Source of the DNA: Candidatus Woesearchaeota archaeon
Lineage (GTDB): Archaea > Nanobdellota > Nanobdellia > Pacearchaeales > GW2011-AR1
Assembly: GCA_964437555.1 (NCBI GenBank)
Contig: CAYTHI010000004.1
Coordinates: 1-60,924 of the forward strand
Direction of reading: 5' to 3'
DNA: 60,924 nucleotides
Every line of letters begins with the position of its first letter. Position 1 is the stretch's first letter. The notes under the pieces are model-generated. The model searched no databases and was not told where the DNA came from. It worked only from the letters and a program-made list of their open reading frames with translations. The translations under genes and the position numbers were made by a program. This document shows, piece after piece, positions 3,490 to 47,805 of this stretch.

Positions 3490-4432
3490 GATTCTAATTT
3501 TAGGAGGATCTGGATTTATAGGAAGCAATCTTGCTAAAAGATTTGTTGATGAAGGGTATGAAGTCAGTGTTATAGATGGCCTTTTGAATAAAACTGGAGG
3601 TAGGAAGGAGAATTTAGAGCCCATTATCTCTAATATAACTTTTATCAATTCTAGAATAGAAGACGTTGATAAACTGGATAAGATTGTTGAACAAAGCGAT
3701 TTTATTATTGATTGTATGGCCTGGACAGCACATAAATCGGCAATCTCAAACCCAAAATTTGACTTGAGATTGAATGTAGAGTCTCATTTGGCCTTGATTG
3801 ATGCCTTAAAAAGAAATCCTAATAAAAGAATTATACTTTTAGGAACGAGAGCACAATATGGGAATCCTCCGGTTGATGAAATTAATGAGGAGACTCCGAT
3901 GATTCCCGAAGATATTCAAGGGATTCATAAGTTAACCTCTGAATCTTACTTTAGAGTTTATTCAAAAATAATGGGCCTGAATGTGGTTTGCCTTAGACTT
4001 CCAAATTGTTTTGGCGAAAATCAGATTACACAAGGGGATGATATTGGTCTAATTGGGGGTTTTATTAGAGATATTCTAGATGATAAATGTATAGAGGTCT
4101 TTGATGGAAGTAGAAAACGCTACTTGCTTTATGTGGAAGATTTAGCAGAGATAATTTTAAAACTGAGCCAAAAAAGGTTTGAAGGATTTTCTGCATTTAA
4201 CGTGGGCGGAGTAGAGGTTGGAATAGAAGAGTTAGTGAAGACAATCATAAAAATATTAGGCAGGGGAAGTTATGAAAAGAAGAGCATTCCATTTGAAATA
4301 AAATCGATTGATACGGGAAGTGCAAAATTTAATGATTTTAAGCTTAAAAGTTTTATCGGTGAAACTCATCTTAGAGATTTTGAACAAAGTTTAAAAAAGA
4401 CGATCAGGTATTTCCAGGAGAATCTGAAATGA
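3482..4432 (+). CDS. NAD(P)-dependent sugar epimerase/reductase (extended SDR)
   Basis: ILGGSGFIGSN Rossmann motif, 316 aa. Overlaps the upstream gene by 8 nt and the downstream gene by 4 nt, so it looks like an operon. Confidence 0.75.
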   Translation: MDKILILGGSGFIGSNLAKRFVDEGYEVSVIDGLLNKTGGRKENLEPIISNITFINSRIEDVDKLDKIVEQSDFIIDCMAWTAHKSAISNPKFDLRLNVESHLALIDALKRNPNKRIILLGTRAQYGNPPVDEINEETPMIPEDIQGIHKLTSESYFRVYSKIMGLNVVCLRLPNCFGENQITQGDDIGLIGGFIRDILDDKCIEVFDGSRKRYLLYVEDLAEIILKLSQKRFEGFSAFNVGGVEVGIEELVKTIIKILGRGSYEKKSIPFEIKSIDTGSAKFNDFKLKSFIGETHLRDFEQSLKKTIRYFQENLK

Positions 4433-5520
4433 TATGGCGATGTGATCTTGTTCCTCAATATGAAAAATATAAAAAAGAAATAAATGAGTCTATAGAAAGA
4501 GTCCTTAAATCCGGGCGTTACATTCTTTCTTCGGAGGTTGCAGAATTTGAGAAAGAATTTGCGAAGTATCTGGGAGTTAATTACTCTATTGCTGTTGGGA
4601 ATGGGACTGATGGACTAACCTTGTCCTTGATGGCCTTAGGTATAGGAAAAGGAGATGAAGTTATAACTACTCCTTTTACTGCAATTCCCACTGTATCCGC
4701 AATTATAGATAGTGGGGCAAAACCTGTATTTGTAGATATAAATCCAGATACATTTTTGATAGACTTAACTAAAGTTAGGGATGCTATAACCTCCAAAACC
4801 AAGGCAATTATTCCTGTTCATATCTTCGGAAATGTTGTTGACATTCCTAAATTAAGAGAAATTGTTGGAAATATTAGAATTATTGAAGATGCTTCACAGT
4901 CTCATGGGAGTAAAATAAAAGGGATTCAATCTGGAACTATGGGGGACCTGGGGGTATTCAGTTTTTATCCTTCGAAAAATTTAGGAGCTTATGGTGATGG
5001 AGGGATGATTGTTACTAATAATAAAGAATGGGCAGATAAAATAAGGCTTCTACGCATGTATGGGATGGTGGACAAAGATAATATAATTATCAATGGAATT
5101 AATAGTAGGTTAGATGAATTACAGGCTGCTATCCTAAGAGTCAAATTAAAATACCTTGATAAGATGAATATCGTCAGAAACGAAATAGCAGAACGTTACA
5201 AAAAAGAATTAAATGCCGAATTTTTCAAGCATCAAAAAATCCCTGAGGAAGTCTTTTCTAATTATCATGTTTTTGTTTCGAGATTTAAAGGGAAAAGAGA
5301 AGCTCTGATAAAATATTTGGAAGAGAATCAAATACAGACAAACATTTATTATCTAATCCCTTTACATCTTCAAAAAGCAAATAAATTTCTTGGATTGAAA
5401 GAAGGAGATTTCCCTCAAGCGGAAAAATTATGTAAAGAAGTCATTGCATTACCCTTGTATCCTGAATTTGAAAAAAGTCAGCAAGATTATGTAATAAAAT
5501 ATATAAACGAATTTAGGTAA
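4429..5520 (+). CDS. DegT/DnrJ/EryC1/StrS-family PLP-dependent sugar aminotransferase
   Basis: Conserved FSFYPSKNLGAYGDGG block (PLP lysine) and the C-terminal LPLYPEF-type ending typical of the family. Confidence 0.9.
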   Translation: MIWRCDLVPQYEKYKKEINESIERVLKSGRYILSSEVAEFEKEFAKYLGVNYSIAVGNGTDGLTLSLMALGIGKGDEVITTPFTAIPTVSAIIDSGAKPVFVDINPDTFLIDLTKVRDAITSKTKAIIPVHIFGNVVDIPKLREIVGNIRIIEDASQSHGSKIKGIQSGTMGDLGVFSFYPSKNLGAYGDGGMIVTNNKEWADKIRLLRMYGMVDKDNIIINGINSRLDELQAAILRVKLKYLDKMNIVRNEIAERYKKELNAEFFKHQKIPEEVFSNYHVFVSRFKGKREALIKYLEENQIQTNIYYLIPLHLQKANKFLGLKEGDFPQAEKLCKEVIALPLYPEFEKSQQDYVIKYINEFR

Positions 5521-35808: not shown

Positions 35809-36513
35809 TTAAAGCTCTCTTAACTGGAGAATCGTGTTTAGTGAGGCGATTTTCTTGAGATCTTCTGGTATTGACAAGATAACTTTCTTGTTGTCTTCTT
35901 TGAGCTTATCGACGGGAATGCCTTTATTTGTTATTTTTCTTACGTAATCCCGAATAGAGATTTCTGATAGGCCAAGCTTTTCAGATAATAATGCATAATC
36001 AACGACAAACCCTTGTTCTTGAAGCTGATAAATTGTTGAAAATATCAGCATTTCCTTATTGGAAAGCTTCTTGAATTTAATGCGAATTTCTTTCTTAAGC
36101 TCGTCAAGGGAATTAAGGATTTCTGATGCCCTTCGGATACGGGAGATTCTATCTTCTTTCTCTTCTGTTTGATGTGCGTTATAAGTATTTAATGCGAACT
36201 TTACACTGGAAGTGGTGGGGTGTTGGTTGGTTTGTTGGTTTGTTGGTTGGTTTGTTGGAACCCCTTCATTTCCTGTGGAAATAATTAAGTTTGGGCTTTT
36301 TAAGGCGTATAAATGCCTTTTATCTGTTGAGGTTTGTGTTGGGGTGTTGGAATTATTTGTTGGTTGGTTTGTTGGATATACCTGATGTGTTGGGGTTTTA
36401 AGGGAATCTTTTAGCTCATTTAGTTCTTTTCTTACTTCTAATACCTCGCTGATTAGATTATCTATATCTTCTTTTACTTTTGAGAAGGCCTCTTTGATTT
36501 TATCGTCCTGCAT
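35809..36513 (-). CDS. Coiled-coil plus PTNQ-repeat linker plus C-terminal winged-helix DNA-binding protein
   Basis: 234 aa. N-terminal KEAFSKVKEDIDNLISEVLEVRKELNELK, a low-complexity PTNQPTN... linker, and wHTH-like MLIFSTIYQLQEQGFVVDYALLSEKLGLSEISIRDYVRKITNKGI. Same architecture as 34925-35569. Confidence 0.55.
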   Translation of the reverse strand: MQDDKIKEAFSKVKEDIDNLISEVLEVRKELNELKDSLKTPTHQVYPTNQPTNNSNTPTQTSTDKRHLYALKSPNLIISTGNEGVPTNQPTNQQTNQHPTTSSVKFALNTYNAHQTEEKEDRISRIRRASEILNSLDELKKEIRIKFKKLSNKEMLIFSTIYQLQEQGFVVDYALLSEKLGLSEISIRDYVRKITNKGIPVDKLKEDNKKVILSIPEDLKKIASLNTILQLREL

Positions 36514-37912: not shown

Positions 37913-38218
37913 ATGAAGGACAAATTAACAACTATCAGGATTTCGTCTGAAGTTGATGGCGAAATAGAAAAGCTGGCAAGGATAGAAGATACTGAAAAGT
38001 CCAAGCTTATAAGGGAGCTGATAATTCTTGGGATGAAAGAAAAGAAGCTTGAAGAGGCGCTGAAACTTTATGAAGAAAGAAAAATATCTTTATGGAAAGC
38101 TGCGCGCTTCGCGGGCATTTCTTTATGGAGAATGATGGAAATTGCAGGAAAGAGAAAAGTAGTTCTCCAATATGGGCTGAAAGAATTGAAAGAAGATTTG
38201 AAGGCGCTGGAGGAATAA
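37913..38218 (+). CDS. UPF0175-family HTH antitoxin-like protein
   Basis: KLYEERKISLWKAARFAGISLWRMMEIAGKRKV is the typical UPF0175 core. Sits directly upstream of a DUF3368/PIN gene, a pairing I recall as recurrent. Confidence 0.7.
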   Translation: MKDKLTTIRISSEVDGEIEKLARIEDTEKSKLIRELIILGMKEKKLEEALKLYEERKISLWKAARFAGISLWRMMEIAGKRKVVLQYGLKELKEDLKALEE

Positions 38219-38219
38219 T

Positions 38220-38726
38220 TTGATAGTCTCAAATGCGAGCCCTTTGATATACTTAGCTAAAATCAATAAATTAGAGCTATTAAAAAAGTTGTTTGGAAAG
38301 ATTTTTATCCCGCCTGAAGTTTATCAAGAGGCTGTTGTAAGGGGAAGAGAAGAAAAGTTTTTGGATGCAATTAGGATAGAAAAAGCAATTAAAGATGGCT
38401 GGATAGAAGTAAACAAGACAGAAAAGCTGGCAGAAGAAATAAAAGTATTTGCTGATGAAATTGACGCAGGCGAGCTGGAAACAATTGGCTTAGCAAGAAA
38501 GCTAAAAGCTTCTTTAGTTTTGAGCGACGATGCTCCTGCAAGAGCGATTGCCGAGAGCTTTGGGCTTAATTCCAAGGGAACGATTTATGTTTTACTAAGG
38601 GCTTATAAGGAAAAAATGCTCCCTAAAAAAAATGTTAAAGAGCTGGTAAATGAGCTTTCGTCTTTGGGCTTTAGAATCTCGCAGGAGGTTTATATTGAAT
38701 TTTTAGAGAAATTGGAGAAGGGTTAG
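38220..38726 (+). CDS. PIN-like nuclease domain protein (DUF3368 family), putative toxin
   Basis: The N-terminus SNASPLIYLAKINKLELLKKLFGKIFIPPEVYQE is characteristic of DUF3368. TTG start 2 nt after the upstream stop. 168 aa. Confidence 0.7.
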   Translation: MIVSNASPLIYLAKINKLELLKKLFGKIFIPPEVYQEAVVRGREEKFLDAIRIEKAIKDGWIEVNKTEKLAEEIKVFADEIDAGELETIGLARKLKASLVLSDDAPARAIAESFGLNSKGTIYVLLRAYKEKMLPKKNVKELVNELSSLGFRISQEVYIEFLEKLEKG

Positions 38727-38867: not shown

Positions 38868-39389
38868 ATGGAAACAAGAAACCAGCCAGAAGAAACCCGG
38901 TCAGATAATAAATACAGATATGATTTAGCAAGTGCTGTTGTTGGTGCTGTTGTTGGTGCTGTTGTTGGTGCTGTTGTTGGTGCTGGTGTTGCTGGTGCTG
39001 GTGGTGCTGGTGCTGCTGTTGTTGGTGCTGTTGTTGGTGGTGTTATTGTTGATGCTGTTGGTGCTGTTGTTGGTGCTGGTGCCGAGGAATTAAAACCGCG
39101 CCATGTTAAAATTGGTGGATTAACTGGTTTAGCAACTTCTGCTGCAATTATTGGCGGAGTATATACTGGGCTTCATTATGGAGGAGAAGCCGGATTAATA
39201 CCATTTAAGACTGAAACAGAGACGGGAATCGTAGTTAGTAGAAATAATGGGGAGCAAAAAATTTATATTGAAAAAGATGGCGCTTATATTCCTCTTGATG
39301 AAATTGGGGAGAATGTTTTGAGTTCTACATCAACAGAACATTCGGGTCTTGAATATCGAATTCTTAAATCAATAAAAAAGAAAGAATAA
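38868..39389 (+). CDS. Glycine-zipper (AVVG-repeat) membrane protein with a C-terminal soluble domain
   Basis: 173 aa. Residues about 20-75 are (A/G)VVG repeats (GxxxG periodicity), then a second hydrophobic stretch and a hydrophilic tail. Confidence 0.5.
   Translation: METRNQPEETRSDNKYRYDLASAVVGAVVGAVVGAVVGAGVAGAGGAGAAVVGAVVGGVIVDAVGAVVGAGAEELKPRHVKIGGLTGLATSAAIIGGVYTGLHYGGEAGLIPFKTETETGIVVSRNNGEQKIYIEKDGAYIPLDEIGENVLSSTSTEHSGLEYRILKSIKKKE
38924..39060 (+). repeat. Tandem 12-bp repeat GCTGTTGTTGGT and variants
   Basis: Four perfect head-to-tail copies at 38924-38971, followed by degenerate GCTGGTG/GCTGTTG units. Encodes the AVVG repeats. Confidence 0.85.
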
Positions 39390-40027: not shown

Positions 40028-42631
40028 ATGGCAAAGAAAATAGGCAACCTTGAGTATATTGAAGCGAATACAGAGAAAGAAGTAATTGAAACCCTTCATC
40101 CGCTTGTCGCAGAATGGTTTTTTAATAAGTTTGAAAAATTGAGCCTGACGCAGCTTTATGGAGTTAAGAGGATTTCAGACAGGAAAAATATACTTATTTC
40201 AGCTCCTACCGGAGGAACTAAGACGCTTACTGCTTTCCTTGGCATTCTTAATTATCTTGTCGGGCTTAGCTTAAAAGACGAACTGGAAGAGAAGATTTAT
40301 TGTGTTTATTCTTCTCCCTTGAAGGCGCTTTCTAATGACATTTTTGTGAATCTTGTTAATCCTTTGAAAGAAATAAATGAATTAGCGGACAAGAAAGGCA
40401 TGAAGATGCAGGAAATAAGAGTTGGATTGCGAACAGGAGATACAACTGTCAGCGAGAGGGTTAAGATGGCTCGCAATATTCCGCATATTCTTGTCACAAC
40501 GCCTGAAAGCTTGAGTATTGTTCTTACTTCGCCTAAATTTGTTGAAAACCTGCGGGCTGTTGAGTTTGTTATTGTTGATGAGATACATGCAATGGCAAAT
40601 AAAAGAGGCGTTTATCTGTCTTTGTCTTTGGAAAGATTAAAAGAAGAGAGCTTGATTGAGCCTGTTCGCATTGGCTTGAGCGCTACTGTTGCGCCTCTTG
40701 AAGAGGTCGCAAGGTTTCTTGTTGGTTATGAAGATGGAAAGGAAAGAGAATGTTTGATTGCACAAGTGCCTTTAGTTAAAGAAGTTGAAATAAAGCTTAT
40801 TACGCCTGCGGAAGATATTTTAGAAGCTGAAAATCCTGAAAATCAGAAGAAATTGTATAAGATTTTAGATGAATTGATTGACGAGCATAAAACAACTTTG
40901 ATTTTTACTAATACAAGAGCGGCTACAGAAAGAGTTGTGCATCATCTTGATTTACATTTTCCTGAAAAATATACTGATTTGATTGGAGCGCATCATTCTT
41001 CCATGAGCAAGGAAAAGAGATTTGAGATTGAAGACAAATTGCGTAAGGGTGAATTGAAAGTGGTTGTTTCTTCTACTTCTCTGGAATTGGGAATTGATAT
41101 TGGAAGTGTTGATTTAGTTGTTCTGCTTCGCTCTCCTAAAAGTGTTGCTCGAGCTTTGCAGAGGATTGGAAGGGCAGGGCATATGCTGCATGCAAACCCT
41201 AAAGGAAGATTTGTTGTTTTAGACAGAGATGATTTAGTTGAATGCGGGGTTTTGATGAAAAATATGATTGAGAAGAAGATTGATGAAGTTAGCATTCCAA
41301 GCAATGCTTTAGATGTATTGGCACAGCAGATTTATGGAATGGCAATTTCAAAGATTTGGAAAGCTGAAAACATGTTAAAAGCTATAAGGAGAAGTTATTG
41401 TTATCACAATTTAAAGAAAGAGGATTTTTATGATGTTATTAGTTATTTGGCGGGAGATTATGCTTTAGAGCACAGGAATGTATATGCAAAAATATGGTAT
41501 GATGCTTCTTCAGGAGAAATAGGAAAGAAAGGCAAGCTTGCCCGCGTGATATACATGACAAATATAGGAACAATTCCTGAAGAGGGTTTTATTAATGTTG
41601 AAATTAATTCTCCAAAGGAAAGAAAGGGGCAAAATGTCGGCAAGATTGATGAGGGATTTTTAGAGAGGCTGAAGAGAGGAGATATTTTCGTATTGGGCGG
41701 CCAGAAATACCAGTTTTTATTTACAAGAGGAATGAAAGCGTATGTTATGGCGGGAATTTCCAGGTCGCCTACCGTGCCTTCCTGGTTTTCGGAAATGCTG
41801 CCTTTGAGTTTTGATGTTGCATTGGATATCGCGCGTTTTCGCGGCTTGGTTAAAGAAAGAATGAAGAATAAGGCAGAGTGTGTTGCCTTCATTAAAAGCT
41901 ATTTGTATGTTGATTCTTTGGCTGCGGAAAATATTTATAAGTATTTCGGGGAGCAGGAAAAGTTTTCAGAGATTCCTGATAATTTTAATTTAATTATAGA
42001 AAAATTTAAGCATGATAAAGAGTATTTGTTGTTTCATAGTTTATATGGCCGAAGAGTGAATGATGCGCTTGCCAGAGCTTATGCATATGCGGCTGCTAAT
42101 TTGAGAATGAGAGATATTGAAATGGGAATTAATGATAATGGATTTTTTATTGCCGGCGAAAGCCTGGATGAAAATAAAATATTAAAAGCAATTACTTCCA
42201 GCAATTTGGAAAGCTTATTGAAAGAAGCGATTGAAAAGACAGATGTTTTGAAGAGGCGCTTTAGGCATTGCGCTTCCCGCGGGCTTATGATTCTTAGAAG
42301 CTACAAAGGCAGGACAAAGAGTGTTGGAAAGCAGCAATTGCATTCTCATTTTCTTTTTGCCGCTGTTAAGAAATTATCTGATGAGTTTCCTATTCTTCGC
42401 GAGGCGCGCCGCGAGGTTTTAGAAGATGTTATGGATATTGAGCATGCTAAAGAGATTTTGAAGTGGATTGAATCCGGACGAATTAAAATTAAAGTATTGA
42501 GAACGCCGATGATTTCGCCCTTCGGGCTTAATTTGTATGTGCAGGGACATGCTGATTTCATAAAGATTGAAGATAAACTTAAGTTTCTGAAGAGGATGCA
42601 TGAGTTGCATCTAAAAATCATCGGAGAATGA
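40028..42631 (+). CDS. lhr: Lhr-type (Lhr-core) superfamily-2 DExH helicase
   Basis: Walker A SAPTGGTKT, DExH VDEIH, motif III SAT, motif VI QRIGRAGH. About 400 aa C-terminal extension of the type found in Lhr-core (DEAD-associated domain). 867 aa. Confidence 0.85.
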   Translation: MAKKIGNLEYIEANTEKEVIETLHPLVAEWFFNKFEKLSLTQLYGVKRISDRKNILISAPTGGTKTLTAFLGILNYLVGLSLKDELEEKIYCVYSSPLKALSNDIFVNLVNPLKEINELADKKGMKMQEIRVGLRTGDTTVSERVKMARNIPHILVTTPESLSIVLTSPKFVENLRAVEFVIVDEIHAMANKRGVYLSLSLERLKEESLIEPVRIGLSATVAPLEEVARFLVGYEDGKERECLIAQVPLVKEVEIKLITPAEDILEAENPENQKKLYKILDELIDEHKTTLIFTNTRAATERVVHHLDLHFPEKYTDLIGAHHSSMSKEKRFEIEDKLRKGELKVVVSSTSLELGIDIGSVDLVVLLRSPKSVARALQRIGRAGHMLHANPKGRFVVLDRDDLVECGVLMKNMIEKKIDEVSIPSNALDVLAQQIYGMAISKIWKAENMLKAIRRSYCYHNLKKEDFYDVISYLAGDYALEHRNVYAKIWYDASSGEIGKKGKLARVIYMTNIGTIPEEGFINVEINSPKERKGQNVGKIDEGFLERLKRGDIFVLGGQKYQFLFTRGMKAYVMAGISRSPTVPSWFSEMLPLSFDVALDIARFRGLVKERMKNKAECVAFIKSYLYVDSLAAENIYKYFGEQEKFSEIPDNFNLIIEKFKHDKEYLLFHSLYGRRVNDALARAYAYAAANLRMRDIEMGINDNGFFIAGESLDENKILKAITSSNLESLLKEAIEKTDVLKRRFRHCASRGLMILRSYKGRTKSVGKQQLHSHFLFAAVKKLSDEFPILREARREVLEDVMDIEHAKEILKWIESGRIKIKVLRTPMISPFGLNLYVQGHADFIKIEDKLKFLKRMHELHLKIIGE

Positions 42632-42684
42632 TTTTCAGTCCATTCAAATTCTATAAAAGAAATTGAAGTTATAAAGGTTATTGG
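42587..42684 (+). repeat. 98-bp direct repeat, copy 1 (last 45 nt of lhr plus 53 nt downstream)
   Basis: Base-for-base identical to 44068-44165 by manual alignment. Confidence 0.9.
42614..42635 (+). terminator. Hairpin plus T-run at the lhr 3' end
   Basis: AAAATCAT-CGGAGA-ATGATTTT (8-bp stem) spans the lhr stop codon (42629-42631) and ends in TTTT. Duplicated inside the second 98-bp repeat. Confidence 0.35.
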
Positions 42685-42737
42685 AGAAGAATGATTAAAA
42701 TAATTTAATTTGTTAAACATGTTTCTTCCGAGAAGTT

Positions 42738-43982
42738 TTAATTTTTATTAGATAGTAAAAATTTGTAAAATGGAATTATATTTATTTTGCCGCTATTTTT
42801 TTCTTGATCATATGAAATAACAAACGCTTTTTTTGGCTTAAATTTCTTTATAAAAACATTTAAAGGCTTTAGGTCTTTTTCTTTAATTCCTCCTGATTTA
42901 ATTTCTATTGCGCTTAAAGGAAAAGTTTTTATTATATCAATTTCGTTTTTATAAGCATCCCGCCAGAAAAAATCTGCATTTAGCTGATTTACCAATGCCT
43001 GTTCAAATACTTTGGGAAATTCAGATTCTAATAACAATTGGTTTGTTATAGTGGAATAATATTTTTTAAGCCTCCTTTCTGTCTTTCTTGCATTTCTTGA
43101 ATAATTATAAAGCTTTTTTATTAAAAAAGACTGTTCAAGATATTCCAAGTGTTCTGATAGTGCCTGTCTTGTTATTCCTATATCTTTGGAGAGCCCCTGA
43201 ATTTCAATAATCTGCCCAGGGTTGTGATAGATGATATTAAAAGTTGATTTTATAATCTGCGGGTTTTTTATTCCAAAAACTTCGGCCATGTCCCTGTAAA
43301 TTACTTTATCAATTATTCCCTCCTGAATATACTTTCTCGCAATCTCTTTTTCTTCATTTATTATTTCTGGAAAGCCGTTGGTTATCAGATATCTGGTAAA
43401 TTCCGACTTTATCTGTTTTTCCTGCAAGATATTATTCTCAATTCTAACATTGCGAAACGCTAAAAATTCCCTGAATGAGAGCGGCGTCAGAAGGAATTGG
43501 AATATTCTTCCAGCCAAACTCTCCCTTGATTTCTTGCGGATAAACAAAGACTCAGAGCCAGAGATAATGAATTTTATGTTTGGATATAAATCGTAGATTG
43601 ACTTAAGCTGCTCCGCCCAGTTTTTTACTTTCTGAATTTCATCAAGGGCAATGAGATATTTTCCAGAACTTATGTTGATATTGAATAATTTTTCGTAGAT
43701 TTCTATCACCCTTCTTATGCGAACTTCGGCAAATTCGTCAAAAGAAAAGTACAATATCCTGTCTTTCTGAAACGTGGCATCAAGATAGTCCTTGATGATC
43801 TTGAATATGGCAGTAGTTTTTCCAACTCTCCTTAGGCCAGTTAATGCTATTATCTGCTTGGTTTTCATGAATTTTTTAAGCTGTTTATCGATTTCTCTTT
43901 CTTTGTATCCCAAAAGGTCGAAGCTTCCAAGCCACCACTTATTCAGCTCTTGCATGTATTGCACAATTGTTTTTTCGTCCAT
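42738..43982 (-). CDS. AAA+ ATPase of the COG1373 type (AAA_14 plus DUF4143)
   Basis: Walker A LTGLRRVGKTT, Walker B LIALDEIQ. 414 aa. The C-terminal half has the wHTH/DUF4143-like layout typical of COG1373. Confidence 0.75.
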   Translation of the reverse strand: MDEKTIVQYMQELNKWWLGSFDLLGYKEREIDKQLKKFMKTKQIIALTGLRRVGKTTAIFKIIKDYLDATFQKDRILYFSFDEFAEVRIRRVIEIYEKLFNINISSGKYLIALDEIQKVKNWAEQLKSIYDLYPNIKFIISGSESLFIRKKSRESLAGRIFQFLLTPLSFREFLAFRNVRIENNILQEKQIKSEFTRYLITNGFPEIINEEKEIARKYIQEGIIDKVIYRDMAEVFGIKNPQIIKSTFNIIYHNPGQIIEIQGLSKDIGITRQALSEHLEYLEQSFLIKKLYNYSRNARKTERRLKKYYSTITNQLLLESEFPKVFEQALVNQLNADFFWRDAYKNEIDIIKTFPLSAIEIKSGGIKEKDLKPLNVFIKKFKPKKAFVISYDQEKNSGKINIIPFYKFLLSNKN

Positions 43983-44067
43983 TTTGTATGACTTGTTTTT
44001 ATAACATACTTTCTATTATGTGTTATTAATAAATAACACACTTTATAAATGCTTCTTTTCTGTGCTC

Positions 44068-44165
44068 CTGAAGAGGATGCATGAGTTGCATCTAAAAATC
44101 ATCGGAGAATGATTTTCAGTCCATTCAAATTCTATAAAAGAAATTGAAGTTATAAAGGTTATTGG
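44068..44165 (+). repeat. 98-bp direct repeat, copy 2
   Basis: Identical to 42587-42684. Here it is not attached to any helicase ORF. Confidence 0.9.
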
Positions 44166-44215
44166 GGAGTAGGTGATAAAGAAAGATTTAAAAATTAGAG
44201 GGTTGTTAGGTGGGT

Positions 44216-44512
44216 ATGAATAAGATTTGGGGAGGTGTTTTGATTATTGCGTTGGTGTTGTTTGCATTGAAAGGAGCAAATAGCTTATCGCCCAAATTAG
44301 ACGTAAATAGGAATGACATTGCTTGGAATCACATATATCAGTGTGGGTCTTGTGGCACGGCACAGTGTCAACTTGCGGAGGAGGGTACGCCATGCGGGTC
44401 TGGAGATCCTCCGACTGGAGTATGTGCAATAAACTACGGGGAAACGTGCGATATTATTCAGCTTAATGCAACAACTCTTTTACATTTTATGAGATGTGAT
44501 TGTGCTATTTAA
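44216..44512 (+). CDS. Small secreted/anchored cysteine-rich protein
   Basis: 98 aa from ATG 44216. N-terminal hydrophobic signal/anchor (IWGGVLIIALVLFAL), then 8 Cys in about 60 residues, including CGSCGTAQC. Confidence 0.45.
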   Translation: MNKIWGGVLIIALVLFALKGANSLSPKLDVNRNDIAWNHIYQCGSCGTAQCQLAEEGTPCGSGDPPTGVCAINYGETCDIIQLNATTLLHFMRCDCAI

Positions 44513-44536
44513 TTACTCTTATTTTTCTTCTTCTTG

Positions 44537-45427
44537 ATGATAAAAATAAATTACCTTGGAAAATGCCTGCTGATTGAGCTTGATGGGAAAAATATTCTTG
44601 TAATCGGGGATTTGCATCTTGGATATAGCGAATCGCTTCGCGAATCAGGTGTATTTATACCAGGAGATTTGTATAAGGAGGTTATTGAAGAGCTGAATTT
44701 GATATTTGAACATATAAGTAAAATACAACATAATAGATTAAATAATTATCAAGATAATGAGGGGGGAAGCAATAGCAAGGGAAATATTAGAGGGATGGCT
44801 ATAGAGAGTAAGATGGCTGAGAAAAGCAGAGATGATAATGAATTAAATAGGACTAAGAATAATTATGGGAACGATGCTGGGATTGTTGATGAAATTATTC
44901 TTCTTGGAGATTTAAAGCATGAATTTGGAAAAATCATGAAAAGCGAGTGGGAAGAGGTTTTGGAGCTTATTGATTATTTATCTGAAAAGGTTGGGAAGAA
45001 TGGGAAAATTGTAATTGTGAAAGGAAATCACGACGTTTTTACTGAAAGCATTACTAAGAAGAAAGGAGTTGAGATTAAAGATTATTATGTTGCTAATGGA
45101 ATCGCTTTTGTGCATGGGGATAGAAAGTTAGAAGGGAGCTGGATTTATGACAAAAAAATAGAATATTGGATAATGGGACACGGGCATCCTGCTGTTCGCA
45201 TTAGCGATGGCGCGAAGGAAGAGAAATACAAATGTTTCCTTACTGGAAGATTTGCGGGAAAAGAAATTATTATTGTTCCGAGCTTTTTTTCTGTTAATGA
45301 AGGCACGGATGCTCGGGATTTTGAACTTGGATTGGCGTGGGATTTTGACTTGATGAATTTTAATGTGAAAGCTATTGGAGACGATCTGGAAGTTCTAAAT
45401 TTTGGAAAATTAAAAAGTGTAAAATAA
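44537..45427 (+). CDS. Calcineurin-like metallophosphoesterase (SbcD/Mre11-related, PdeM/MPE-like) with a low-complexity insert
   Basis: Motifs VIGDLHLG, GDLKHE, GNHD and GHGH in canonical order. An Asn/Gly/Lys-rich insert of about 60 aa lies between motifs I and II. Confidence 0.75.
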   Translation: MIKINYLGKCLLIELDGKNILVIGDLHLGYSESLRESGVFIPGDLYKEVIEELNLIFEHISKIQHNRLNNYQDNEGGSNSKGNIRGMAIESKMAEKSRDDNELNRTKNNYGNDAGIVDEIILLGDLKHEFGKIMKSEWEEVLELIDYLSEKVGKNGKIVIVKGNHDVFTESITKKKGVEIKDYYVANGIAFVHGDRKLEGSWIYDKKIEYWIMGHGHPAVRISDGAKEEKYKCFLTGRFAGKEIIIVPSFFSVNEGTDARDFELGLAWDFDLMNFNVKAIGDDLEVLNFGKLKSVK

Positions 45428-45432
45428 GTAAA

Positions 45433-45849
45433 CTACTCTTTCTTAGAAATTCTTGGCAAGCCGAAATGCGGCTGCAAATTGAGCTCTTCTTCGAGCTGAA
45501 GAGCCTTTATAGTAGATTTCTGAAGCACTAAATTTAAAAGAGAAAGATTCATTTCTGGAGGTATTTTTTTATCTTTCCAGCTTTTGAGAAGCTCGGCCAT
45601 TTGCTTTTTGTCTAATTTCAATACGAGAAAGCCGGTGAAAGAGATACTGGCCAGCTTAGGCTCGTATGATATTGTAGAACTAAAATGCACCCGAACAACA
45701 TCTTCGCTAAGAAGGTCAAATTTTTCCTTCTGAACATCTGAAAACTCAATATTTGTAGTTACTTTCTTTTCCTGAACAGACGGGCCTCTTTTAGGCATTT
45801 CAAACCTCTCTGCAGAAATTTTTGTAAAATTAAATCCTATGATTTGCAT
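45433..45849 (-). CDS. Hypothetical protein (138 aa)
   Basis: Clean ORF, beta-rich composition, no motif recognised. Confidence 0.35.
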   Translation of the reverse strand: MQIIGFNFTKISAERFEMPKRGPSVQEKKVTTNIEFSDVQKEKFDLLSEDVVRVHFSSTISYEPKLASISFTGFLVLKLDKKQMAELLKSWKDKKIPPEMNLSLLNLVLQKSTIKALQLEEELNLQPHFGLPRISKKE

Positions 45850-45891
45850 GCTTGTTTTTATTTACGCTGGTTTTTAAAGATTGCTATGAAA

Positions 45892-46152
45892 TCACAAGAG
45901 ATCTTCTTCAGAAACTACAACAAAGTCGCCTATTGCTATAATTGCATTGTAAGGCAATACAAATTCTTTTTCAGAATTAACTTCTAAGTTCAGGCTTTTT
46001 GCATGAATTGTTGGGTCTTTTAAGAGTAATTGAAGCAATTCTCCTGTTCTCGTTTCAAATGTGACGTCCTTAACGCTTCCTATTCGTTTGCCTTCTTTTG
46101 TTACAACAAGCCTGCCTACAATATCTCTAAGAGGCTTTTTGTCTAATCCCAT
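45892..46152 (-). CDS. PRC-barrel domain protein
   Basis: 86 aa. VGRLVVTKEGKRIGSVKDVTFETRTGELLQLLL is the typical PRC-barrel core. Confidence 0.7.
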   Translation of the reverse strand: MGLDKKPLRDIVGRLVVTKEGKRIGSVKDVTFETRTGELLQLLLKDPTIHAKSLNLEVNSEKEFVLPYNAIIAIGDFVVVSEEDLL

Positions 46153-46199
46153 ATATCAGACAGAAAGAATCTATATATAAAGATTTTGTTAGTGAAAAA

Positions 46200-46560
46200 T
46201 GAGAGATTGAAACAAGTCAATTCAAAAGGAAGAGAACCCCTCCCCCCTTCATTTCCTGTGGAAAAAAGAGAAGGGTTTATAAATAAATTGTATTTTTTAT
46301 TTTTTTCATTTTTCTTTTTAAATTTATATATTTTATAATATATATAATGTAATAAATAGATTTTAAATAGAAAACTTATATATCATGAATGAAAAACGAA
46401 AGAGAAGTGCTTGTTTTTAGAGTTTCATCGGAAATGAAGGTGTGAGTCTTGTTTTTACTTTAAAATTACTCTTTAAAGTACGCCGACGATAATTTCTTTT
46501 TTTGTTATTCTTTCCATAAGAAATACAGGTTGAAGTAGCGATAACTTTATAATCAATAGG
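46200..46560. other. Candidate chromosomal replication origin (oriC): inverted ORB elements flanking an AT-rich DUE
   Basis: ORB1 46235-46264 reads TTTCCACAGGAAATGAAGGGGGGAGGGG on the minus strand: a dyad TTTCC-N3-GGAAA plus a G-string. ORB2 46424-46447 (TTTCATCGGAAATGAAGGTGTG) is in inverted orientation. Between them is a stretch of over 100 bp that is almost pure A/T (about 46277-46380). Directly upstream of orc1/cdc6. Confidence 0.7.
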
Positions 46561-46596
46561 GTTCTTTTCTGGCAGAGGTAAAAATGGAGGTAAAAA

Positions 46597-47805
46597 ATGT
46601 CTCAGAAAATTGACAAAATTTTTGATTCTTTTATCAGAAATAATTTATTTAAGAGCAAAGCAGTCCTGCAGATAAATTACACTCCTGAAATTATTGCACA
46701 CAGGGACGAGCAGACAAGCGCTGTTGCTTCTGTACTCGCCCCCGCGCTGAGAAACGAAAGGATAAGCAACCTTTTTGTTTACGGAAAAACAGGCACAGGC
46801 AAAACCCTGAGTGTTCAATATGTGGGAAATGAAATATTAAAGAGGGCAAAAGATAGGGGCGAGGATTTTGTTAATGTCATTTATGTCAATTGCAAGCTAA
46901 AGAAAGTAGCAGATACAGAATATAGAATTCTTGCTGAAATCATTAATCGCCTTGGCGGAAATGTCCCTTCAACAGGCCTGCCCACAGACGTAGTTTATAA
47001 TAAATTTGTTTCTTTAATTGATAATAAAAGACAAATAGTTATTTTGATATTGGATGAAATTGACCAGGCAGTAAAAAAGATTTCTGATAATTTTCTTTAT
47101 ACTCTTACAAGACTGAATTCTGATTTGAAAAATGCGCAAATAGGGATTATAGGCATAAGCAACAGCTTAACATTTATGGATAATTTAGATCCAAGAGTGA
47201 GAAGCTCTCTCGGCGAAGAGGAATTGGTTTTTTCTCCCTACAATGCTTTGCAATTGCAGGATATTCTGAAACAGAGGGCAGACCAGGCTTTTGTTGAGGG
47301 AGTTTTAGAAGAAGGAGTTATTGCCAAGTGTGCGGCTTACGCCGCAAGGGAGCACGGAGATGCCAGAAGAGCTTTAGATTTATTAAGAGTGGCGGGCGAG
47401 CTCGCGGAAAGGGAAGGCAGTAAAAGAGTGAGTCTTACTCATATAGATGCCGCAAACAACAAAATTGAGAGGGATAAAATGCTGGACATCATTCAGAATG
47501 AGCCGAGGCAATTTCAGCTTGTTTTAAATGCTATTATAGACCTTACAGAGGATAAAAAGTTTGACAGAATTTTTACAGGAAATATTTATAATAAATACCA
47601 GGAAGTATGCACAAAAACAAAAAACGAAATTCTTACACAGAGGAGAGTTTCTGATATAATCGCAGAGTTTGACATGCTTGGCATAATCAATGCAGATGTT
47701 ATCAGCAAGGGAAGGCAGGGGAGAACAAGAGTAATAAAGCTGATGCTGACGGAAGGCCTGAGGGAAAAAGCAAGAGAGATACTTAATGAAAGCCTGAATT
47801 TATAA
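46597..47805 (+). CDS. cdc6: Orc1/Cdc6 replication initiator
   Basis: Walker A YGKTGTGKT, Walker B ILDEID, sensor and C-terminal winged-helix regions. 402 aa. Confidence 0.92.
   Translation: MSQKIDKIFDSFIRNNLFKSKAVLQINYTPEIIAHRDEQTSAVASVLAPALRNERISNLFVYGKTGTGKTLSVQYVGNEILKRAKDRGEDFVNVIYVNCKLKKVADTEYRILAEIINRLGGNVPSTGLPTDVVYNKFVSLIDNKRQIVILILDEIDQAVKKISDNFLYTLTRLNSDLKNAQIGIIGISNSLTFMDNLDPRVRSSLGEEELVFSPYNALQLQDILKQRADQAFVEGVLEEGVIAKCAAYAAREHGDARRALDLLRVAGELAEREGSKRVSLTHIDAANNKIERDKMLDIIQNEPRQFQLVLNAIIDLTEDKKFDRIFTGNIYNKYQEVCTKTKNEILTQRRVSDIIAEFDMLGIINADVISKGRQGRTRVIKLMLTEGLREKAREILNESLNL

Follow-up and report, generated by a model that had tools for sequence, protein, structure and literature searches.

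The 60,924-nt window analyzed here (the whole of positions 1 to 60,924 of contig CAYTHI010000004.1, Candidatus Woesearchaeota archaeon) is AT-rich archaeal DNA carrying genes for cdc6, PolD and Lhr, and its proteins find their best matches in metagenome-assembled genomes of Pacearchaeota and Nanoarchaeota. At the 3' end of the gene for the Lhr-type helicase begins the sole long dispersed direct repeat of the window, a pair of 98-bp copies that enclose a single gene on the opposite strand, encoding an ATPase of the COG1373 / PDC-S01 family (Table 1). An earlier note, drawn from the sequence alone, had described this arrangement as a one-gene cassette bounded by copies of the lhr 3' end. Direct comparison bore out the repeat (98 of 98 bp identical, or 101 nt if one mismatch is allowed), and the only real gene between the copies was that of the ATPase, which has AAA_14 and DUF4143 domains. 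The anatomy given in that note holds except in one count: copy 1 does supply the stop codon and 3' flank of lhr, but its lhr portion comprises the final 14 codons rather than 15.

Table 1. Features of the repeat-bounded locus behind lhr, in window coordinates.
Feature	Position	Strand	Basis
Lhr-type helicase, target gene, 867 aa	40028..42631	+	Pfam DEAD, Helicase_C, WH_Lhr, DEAD_assoc; homologues 94-70% identical
Direct repeat copy 1, functional copy (lhr 3' end, stop, 53-nt flank)	42587..42684		98-bp identity
Sequence S copy 1, imperfect hairpin from lhr stop codon	42627..42686		predicted fold; comparison with L004
53-nt spacer, repeat copy 1 to ATPase stop; tail side of insert	42685..42737	-	read from sequence
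Cassette gene, AAA_14 + DUF4143 ATPase, 414 aa	42738..43982	-	Pfam, alignment, PADLOC, AlphaFold2, Foldseek
Cassette promoter and operator	43983..44067	-	module conserved upstream of homologues
Direct repeat copy 2, orphan lhr 3' end + S, continuous with downstream host DNA	44068..44165		98-bp identity; equivalent orphan in L004
Small Cys-rich ORF, host gene parted from lhr by insert	44210..44512	+	homologous to L086 ORF between lhr and phosphoesterase
Metallophosphoesterase, host gene parted from lhr by insert	44534..45427	+	Pfam Metallophos

The two copies start 1481 bp apart (42587 and 44068). An 8-bp hairpin overlaps the lhr stop codon in copy 1; a scan for a canonical terminator found none, and an Rfam scan of 42300-44600 gave no match. 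At 0.29-0.36, the insert is only marginally lower in G+C than its flanks, which is not diagnostic. No recombinase gene was found in the repeat-bounded segment or among the Pfam-tested open reading frames (ORFs) of the region from about 35 to 53 kb, several of which have no Pfam match at all.

Three sets of relatives without the cassette (L082, L083-85 and L086, with Lhr proteins 94%, 83% and 82% identical to that of the window) share with the window the gene order lhr, small ORF(s), metallophosphoesterase, 138-aa ORF, PRC-barrel, cdc6, polD small and polD large. The search for an empty site that the earlier note had proposed was thus successful at the level of gene order, as all three carry lhr followed by a small ORF and the phosphoesterase, with no ATPase gene. 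The small Cys-rich ORF past repeat copy 2 is homologous to the ORF directly after lhr in L086. At more distant Lhr loci, surveyed by a metagenome scan with an Lhr alignment, the phosphoesterase directly after lhr was the norm among the matches listed, and none of these matches, mostly distant relatives, had the ATPase at the lhr-phosphoesterase junction. Because L082, L083-85 and L086 keep the synteny without the ATPase, the window gene is, judging by gene order, an insertion that split the lhr-phosphoesterase pair. A base-by-base reconstruction of the empty site gave no result; the intergenic DNA of the closest relative does not align, and the window is 74-85% identical to this relative at the DNA level. 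The DNA on the other side of lhr differs between genomes as well: a toxin-antitoxin-like pair (UPF0175 + DUF3368/PIN, 37913-38726) lies upstream of lhr, within 2.4 kb of DNA that the closest relative, L082, does not have, and L109 carries a similar pair in the interval from lhr to the phosphoesterase gene. Variation thus affects both sides of lhr.

One genome, L004, was found to carry an ATPase homologue (62% identical) at the lhr-phosphoesterase junction, oriented as in the window; its intein-containing Lhr is 74-76% identical to that of the window. The ATPase might then be an old, vertically inherited resident of the junction that was lost in several relatives, with the repeat as an unrelated local duplication, and the ATPase identity of 62% does fall between those of Lhr (75%) and of the phosphoesterase (46%). 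The earlier note had itself held that the gene at the same place in a relative, without repeats and with clear vertical inheritance, would speak against mobility. The place is indeed the same in L004, but the junctions differ (the ATPase stop lies at lhr stop +3 nt, compared with lhr stop +53 nt in the window), L004 has a repeat of its own, degenerate and only about 21 nt long, and the tree does not group the two ATPases as sisters; therefore no simple vertical inheritance is shown. In addition, the three closer relatives are without the gene, and a perfect repeat in a genome 74-85% identical to its closest relative means that the duplication is recent or is being homogenised. Vertical residence is in our view very improbable.

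In L004 an orphan lhr end is followed by a 56-nt sequence, here called S, upstream of the ATPase promoter. S begins at the stop codon and is predicted to fold as an imperfect hairpin, and the L004 version is identical at 49 of 56 positions to window 44108-44167 (S copy 2), from which S copy 1 of the window differs by one base. None of the 39 lhr loci without a cassette has S in the 250 nt that follow lhr, and only L004, the other lhr locus with a cassette, shares it with the window. S is anomalous because it is an intergenic stretch conserved with a distant genome, while the nearest relative is only 74-85% identical. The tip of lhr is unusual too: the last 24 nt of the window gene hold nine differences from L082 (the top 1.9% of segments so compared), and the alternative sequence is common to L082, L083 and L086. 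At the protein level the window tip, HELHL, is the family-wide majority form, and the closest clade has Q at that position. These sequence comparisons are suggestive, but not conclusive, of an lhr-tip/S allele that travels with insertions at the lhr-phosphoesterase junction. A simple Campbell model with S carried by the element was rejected, as it misfits L004, in which S lies on the orphan side. As a separate observation, the Lhr proteins of L004 and L109, found in some Pacearchaeota-/Woesearchaeota-like genomes, contain an intein with a LAGLIDADG-type homing endonuclease and reach 1330-1335 aa.

The cassette protein is an ordinary member of the known COG1373 / PDC-S01 family, composed of AAA+ (AAA_14), helical, winged-helix and PD-(D/E)xK (DUF4143) modules. 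PF13173 (AAA_14) matches residues 42-174 (E 2.9e-35) and PF13635 (DUF4143), which has been classed as a PD-(D/E)xK domain (PMC3424549), matches the C-terminus (E 2.4e-16); the PADLOC model of PDC-S01, PDLC04787, matches the full length (E 2.3e-57). Walker A (GLRRVGKTT) and Walker B (DEIQ) are present, and an alignment of 28 family sequences revealed G49, K55, T56, D114 and E115 to be invariant. The nuclease residues D349 and E360-x-K362 are intact, with D349, E360 and K362 invariant or nearly so in the same alignment. NCBIfam has no model for the family, and a sequence search of the PDB gave only a marginal match to 2qen. An AlphaFold2 model (pLDDT 89.5) was compared by Foldseek, and its top matches were Orc1/Cdc6 bound to origin DNA, RFC subunits and archaeal ATPases of the AAA+/winged-helix type (SSO1545, PAB2304; 2fna, 2qen), with STAND NTPases also among the structural neighbours. 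All neighbours have a TM-score of 0.44 or less and none is a full-length equivalent. The Pfam, NCBIfam and PDB fold matches are of AAA+ and PD-(D/E)xK types only and include no known transposase fold (DDE, HUH, Tyr/Ser). Because of the Orc1/Cdc6- and RFC-like neighbours, the model suggests a DNA-binding AAA+ switch fused to a nuclease, adjoining conserved palindromes. The closest homologue elsewhere has 62-64% amino acid identity, and plasmid and phage collections yielded only distant homologues (at most 35% identity), so that no vehicle was identified.

PDC-S01 was identified through its 'embedded' position in other operons (bioRxiv 10.1101/2024.01.29.577857), the hosts being BREX, DISARM and type I restriction-modification operons (PMC12988326; bioRxiv 10.1101/2024.01.29.577857). 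It is reported to rank fourth in frequency among defence candidates, to be enriched in archaea and to have been transferred between domains, and is as yet unvalidated (PMC12988326).

Upstream of the window gene, a TATA box (44042-44049) is followed just downstream by palindrome 1, GTGTTATT-AATA-AATAACAC (44020-44039), and by a second block of half-sites (44001-44019). Palindrome 1 is the promoter-region inverted repeat that the earlier note had pointed out, and it matches an operator conserved throughout the family. The module, AAAGrTTTATAAA and then tATGTTAat..atTAACATAAAATnGATTATAGGTTAa, consists of a B recognition element (BRE)/TATA promoter and then palindromes built on GTTAA/TTAAC, and it stands upstream of nearly all of about 80 homologues, bacterial ones included; the bacterial homologues keep the upstream module and have a -35/-10 promoter in place of the TATA box. 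The ATPase gene with its operator is the sole component common to archaeal phyla and bacteria. In L016, a 23-bp flanking repeat (3918-3940 and 5241-5263) is itself a BRE/TATA promoter (CCGAAAAGCTTAAATAGT), and this duplication appears to give a promoter to both the ATPase gene and the displaced downstream gene.

The earlier note had asked whether other members of the family are likewise flanked by duplicated host sequence. At 80 homologue loci (44-62% identical) from species-representative genomes, we compared the 700 bp on either side and recorded the longest direct repeat that matched exactly. A repeat of at least 19 bp was present at about 16 of the 80 loci, compared with 2 of 299 shifted control intervals; with other ORFs as controls, 14 of 70 ATPase-family ORFs and 3 of 103 other ORFs were flanked (Fisher p = 3.6e-4). 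Alignments anchored at the cassette edges were significant in 19-22 of 73 loci (26-30%), against a cross-locus null of at most 0.4%. Duplicated host sequence flanks at least a quarter of the homologous cassettes elsewhere; flanking duplication is a property of the gene family, and this check, like that for empty sites, supports the interpretation in the note. The repeats are 19 to >230 bp long (at least 232 bp) and 78-100% identical. They are unrelated in sequence between loci, are pieces of host genes and share no common att core. Targets include rtcB (L020, L024), a DUF2779 gene (L030), ubiD (L057), an EF-1beta gene (L169), the 5' end of an epimerase gene, an 811-aa ORF without Pfam match and possibly, as judged by eye only, a tRNA 3' end (L060); the L033 repeat lies just beyond the stop codon of a PEP-utilising enzyme gene. 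The duplicated segment regenerates the target gene end at lhr in the window, at rtcB in L020 and L024, at the DUF2779 gene in L030 and at the EF-1beta gene in L169. The tail spacer between cassette and repeat measures from -27 to about 100 nt in other loci. Terminal inverted repeats above chance were not found in the flanks of the homologue loci: the longest inverted match was at most 21 nt, and the 10-14 nt or so seen at most loci is background. Very long repeats at L067 and L011 proved to be tandem full-length paralogous genes around the ATPase gene and were excluded.

Two further observations concern the cassette edges. The cassettes of L072 (408-476 and 1856-1882) and L073 (3807-3875 and 5249-5317) are bracketed by a hairpin-forming element of about 69 nt, GGGGTCAAAGCTACT...AGTAGGTTTGACCC, which could be REP-like or attC-like; both are bacterial bins (Aminicenantes, Eubacteriales), their ATPases are 97% identical and no obvious gene end is seen at the brackets. 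In L169-L174, where 11 contigs encode one and the same ATPase protein, population variants differ by a four-gene block of about 1.9 kb (209-aa, 100-aa, 58-aa and Yip1 proteins) that directly precedes the cassette promoter, which makes the cassette edge a hotspot of further rearrangement.

The family data also bear on the concern that the repeat is an assembly artefact, that is, a graph loop or strain variant mis-threaded via a shared 98-mer. The window apparently comes from a metagenome assembly, its repeat is perfect and exactly 98 bp long (k-1 for k = 99), and exact look-up of the window ATPase and Lhr sequences gave no second assembly with which to compare the junctions. However, imperfect repeats are seen in independent assemblies (110 bp at 95%, 136 bp at 93% and 232 bp at 89% identity), and such repeats are beyond the reach of graph artefacts. 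L004 has an orphan lhr end and S at the equivalent position, and an artefact would still demand real repeat-cassette and cassette-repeat junctions, which amounts to a circle sharing 98 bp with the chromosome. We therefore give this explanation hardly any weight.

Homology between the loci of different genomes is confined to a unit of about 1.31-1.33 kb, the contexts being otherwise unrelated. On the left the unit begins with the first operator half-site, some 90 nt ahead of the ATG; on the right it stops with the last conserved codon: the C-terminal motif ..IP(A/F)(F/Y)K(F/Y)LL is conserved and is followed by flank-specific tails of 0-12 residues. The unit is 92-94% identical among L039, L043, L045 and L076, which are binned to different orders of methanogens and anaerobic methanotrophic archaea (ANME), and 84-89% identical among L003, L005 and L006. 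Two Logan contigs, of 1348 and 1354 bp, terminate within 30 nt of the cassette boundaries, the behaviour expected of a unit that forms a repeat node of an assembly graph. Cassettes L020 and L030, although sisters, occupy different targets, each with its own repeat (110 bp in L030), and at the rtcB site the ATPases of L020 and L024 are 78% identical at the same spot while the RtcB proteins are 66% identical. From the shared site of L020 and L024 and the new site of L030 it follows that spread at the same site and movement with new duplications both occur.

These boundaries are hard to reconcile with a protein that has no role in mobility, in which case an often-transferred (defence) gene would have been inserted as passive cargo by host recombination or repair, either by Campbell-type integration of circularised fragments or by allele transfer through flanking homology. 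Such routes suit the xenologous repeat copies described below and the co-transferred S and lhr tip, most loci have no repeats, the lhr-phosphoesterase spacer holds unrelated inserts in other lineages, and the family is predicted as a defence gene. Random fragments, however, would not share both ends in at least four unrelated contexts, new targets bring new duplications (L030 compared with L020), and other ORFs of the same loci rarely have flanking repeats. Passive transfer is accordingly unlikely, although it is the most serious competitor among the explanations considered here.

Where the two repeat copies differ, their differences point to the origin of one of them. In the 232-bp repeat of L057, in ubiD, 20 of 25 mismatches affect the third base of a codon, and the encoded segments differ at 4 of 76 residues; in L049 the proportion is 15 of 21 mismatches, and the alignments of L079 and L077 show the same third-position periodicity by eye. 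The ORF end and stop codon are kept in both copies at L020, L024 and L030. A decaying orphan would not show a third-position bias, so the divergence arose in two functional genes, and one repeat copy is often xenologous, to judge from these substitution patterns, having come from a functional gene of another lineage. Divergence between two functional genes means that the cassette came with a foreign target segment or that the insertion allele was imported by homologous recombination.

In the earlier note the repeats had been likened to attL/attR. The part of this comparison that concerns the regenerated gene ends stands; as repeat sequence and length vary from site to site and no integrase was found in or near any cassette examined, the likeness is one of function and not of membership. 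One could still suppose that the cassette is non-autonomous and depends on a site-specific recombinase from another part of the genome (a tyrosine recombinase such as XerA, for instance), with the repeats as true attL/attR. Such an enzyme would suit the regenerated ends, the resemblance of the L060 target to a tRNA 3' end, a xenologous repeat copy (as when attP carries the gene end) and the recurrence of one site across diverged lineages (rtcB for L020 and L024, lhr for the window and L004). We consider it improbable, given that the integrase is missing, that the repeats have no common core and vary from 19 to >230 bp, that the sister cassettes L020 and L030 sit in unrelated targets, and that only the ATPase gene and its operator are shared across archaeal phyla and bacteria.

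Relatives lack the gene, the unit ends sharply at boundaries that recur in unrelated contexts, flanking duplications are enriched and one repeat copy is often xenologous. We regard 42685-44067 as probably a foreign single-gene mobile cassette that was inserted with a long, variable target duplication, that can be looped out and that spreads by homologous recombination. It would belong to a widespread family of one-gene units of about 1.3 kb, present in many archaea and some bacteria at a variety of sites, mostly the ends of genes. Insertion at the lhr 3' end would have duplicated 98 bp, leaving the lhr end intact and an orphan copy on the other side. Recombination between the repeats could then loop the cassette out as a circle of about 1.48 kb (1481 bp, cassette plus one repeat) and restore the empty site, and circles or insertion alleles may return to related genomes, the duplicated segment providing the homology for recombination. 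Re-entry through homology would explain both the xenologous copies and the same-site occupancy in diverged lineages.

A first insertion at a new site would need a further step that creates the duplication. The likeliest agent would be the ATPase-nuclease of the cassette itself, with the left-end operator palindromes as its putative binding site, because no other component is present in every copy and no integrase, transposase, terminal inverted repeats or attC were found. Self-mobilisation by the ATPase-nuclease is our leading hypothesis; it is unproven, and we hold it to be possible rather than probable. Likewise no more than possible is the proposal that the AAA+-winged-helix-PD-(D/E)xK protein is the mobilisation enzyme of an unrecognised class of one-gene transposable element. 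Such a protein would bind the left-end palindromes and make distant staggered breaks in the target, the repair of which would duplicate tens to hundreds of base pairs; insertions near gene ends would then be harmless, and the protein could also promote excision to a circle of about 1.4 kb.

Several points weigh against the mobile-cassette reading or its mechanism. About 70% of the homologue loci have no detectable flanking repeat, and all comparison genomes are metagenome-assembled, so that binning or assembly errors are possible. The best homologue of the window protein reaches only 62-64% amino acid identity, and therefore recent movement of the window copy cannot be shown. The homologue at the same junction in L004 is compatible with an old insertion followed by repeated loss. 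The perfect 98-bp repeat could have arisen from an assembler threading an episomal circle into the chromosome. Duplication lengths of 19 to >230 bp match no fixed-stagger mechanism, and we know of no PD-(D/E)xK/AAA+ protein that acts as a lone transposase.

Comparison with known mobile elements places the cassette outside each of them. Free-standing homing endonuclease genes likewise consist of a single nuclease gene that brings its own promoter and lies at the end of a conserved gene or between two such genes, are sporadic in close relatives, leave empty cognate sites, occupy the same site in diverged lineages and have flanks seemingly co-converted from the donor. Homing, however, leaves no target duplication, whereas the cassettes duplicate 19 to >230 bp and use many unrelated sites, and to our knowledge no homing endonuclease family has an Orc1/Cdc6-like AAA+ module such as that of the cassette protein. 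Integrase-type integrative elements are likewise bracketed by direct repeats, rebuild the end of the target gene and bring one foreign copy, but the cassette is a one-gene insert of 1.3-1.5 kb with many targets and without a tyrosine or serine recombinase or a conserved att core. Integron gene cassettes are one-gene mobile units that can form small circles and occur in DPANN and other archaea, as would, on our reading, those described here. The present cassettes differ in having their own TATA box and operator, in occurring singly and in being bracketed by host gene ends; no attC-type site or nearby IntI was seen, S and the bacterial 69-nt hairpins not having been run against attC models. Insertion sequence (IS) elements, casposons and CRISPR repeat duplication also duplicate the target on either side of an insert with defined ends, but the cassette has no terminal inverted repeats, DDE, HUH or Cas1, and its duplication is far longer and is variable rather than fixed. 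The cassette is thus not an IS element, an integrase-type element, an integron cassette or a classic homing endonuclease gene, and its lifestyle is nearest to that of the last.

The arrangement also recalls the pairing of an archaeal Orc1/Cdc6 initiator with an adjacent origin flanked by origin recognition boxes (ORBs), in that conserved inverted repeats on either side of an AT-rich spacer stand immediately before the cassette gene. The cassette protein differs in its TM-score of 0.44 or less, its C-terminal PD-(D/E)xK nuclease and the absence of any sign of cassette replication. Elsewhere in the window, a 24-nt repeat (23 of 24 identical, 36261-36284 and 46244-46267), CCCCTTCATTTCCTGTGGAAA(T/A)AA, contains an ORB-like TTCCTGTGGAAA core. 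Its copy at 46244-46267 lies in an AT-rich gap (dip at 45800-46700) just upstream of cdc6, the other copy being 10 kb off, and this is probably the replication origin, with a mere 2 kb or so between it and the cassette. The ORF at 38868-39389 contains a 12-nt tandem coding repeat, GCTGTTGTTGGT, in 12 overlapping copies, encoding a Gly/Ala/Val-rich segment that is probably membrane-associated.

The window gene belongs to the same family as PDC-S01 / COG1373 and has the same AAA_14 + DUF4143 architecture; the literature treats it as an unvalidated defence gene, whereas here it appears as a discrete mobile unit. The gene family is therefore known, and what appears to be new is its reading as a one-gene mobile cassette, with its conserved operator and the long, variable duplications that rebuild gene ends; the searchable literature gave no account of the family as a mobile one-gene cassette, of its operator or of flanking target duplications. 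COG1373/PDC-S01 comprises tens of thousands of prokaryotic genes that are counted as immune candidates mainly for their embedding in operons. If these genes are mobile cassettes, embedding has a simple alternative explanation in mobility, and duplications that rebuild gene ends would explain how a cassette lands without cost inside operons such as lhr-phosphoesterase. There would also be a route of gene movement in archaea, the tiny DPANN genomes included, that is free of integrases and transposases, and possibly a new recombination activity of an AAA+/PD-(D/E)xK protein that is open to experiment. Should self-mobilisation prove true, PDC-S01 would be at least partly a selfish element that owes its place inside operons to its capacity to move.

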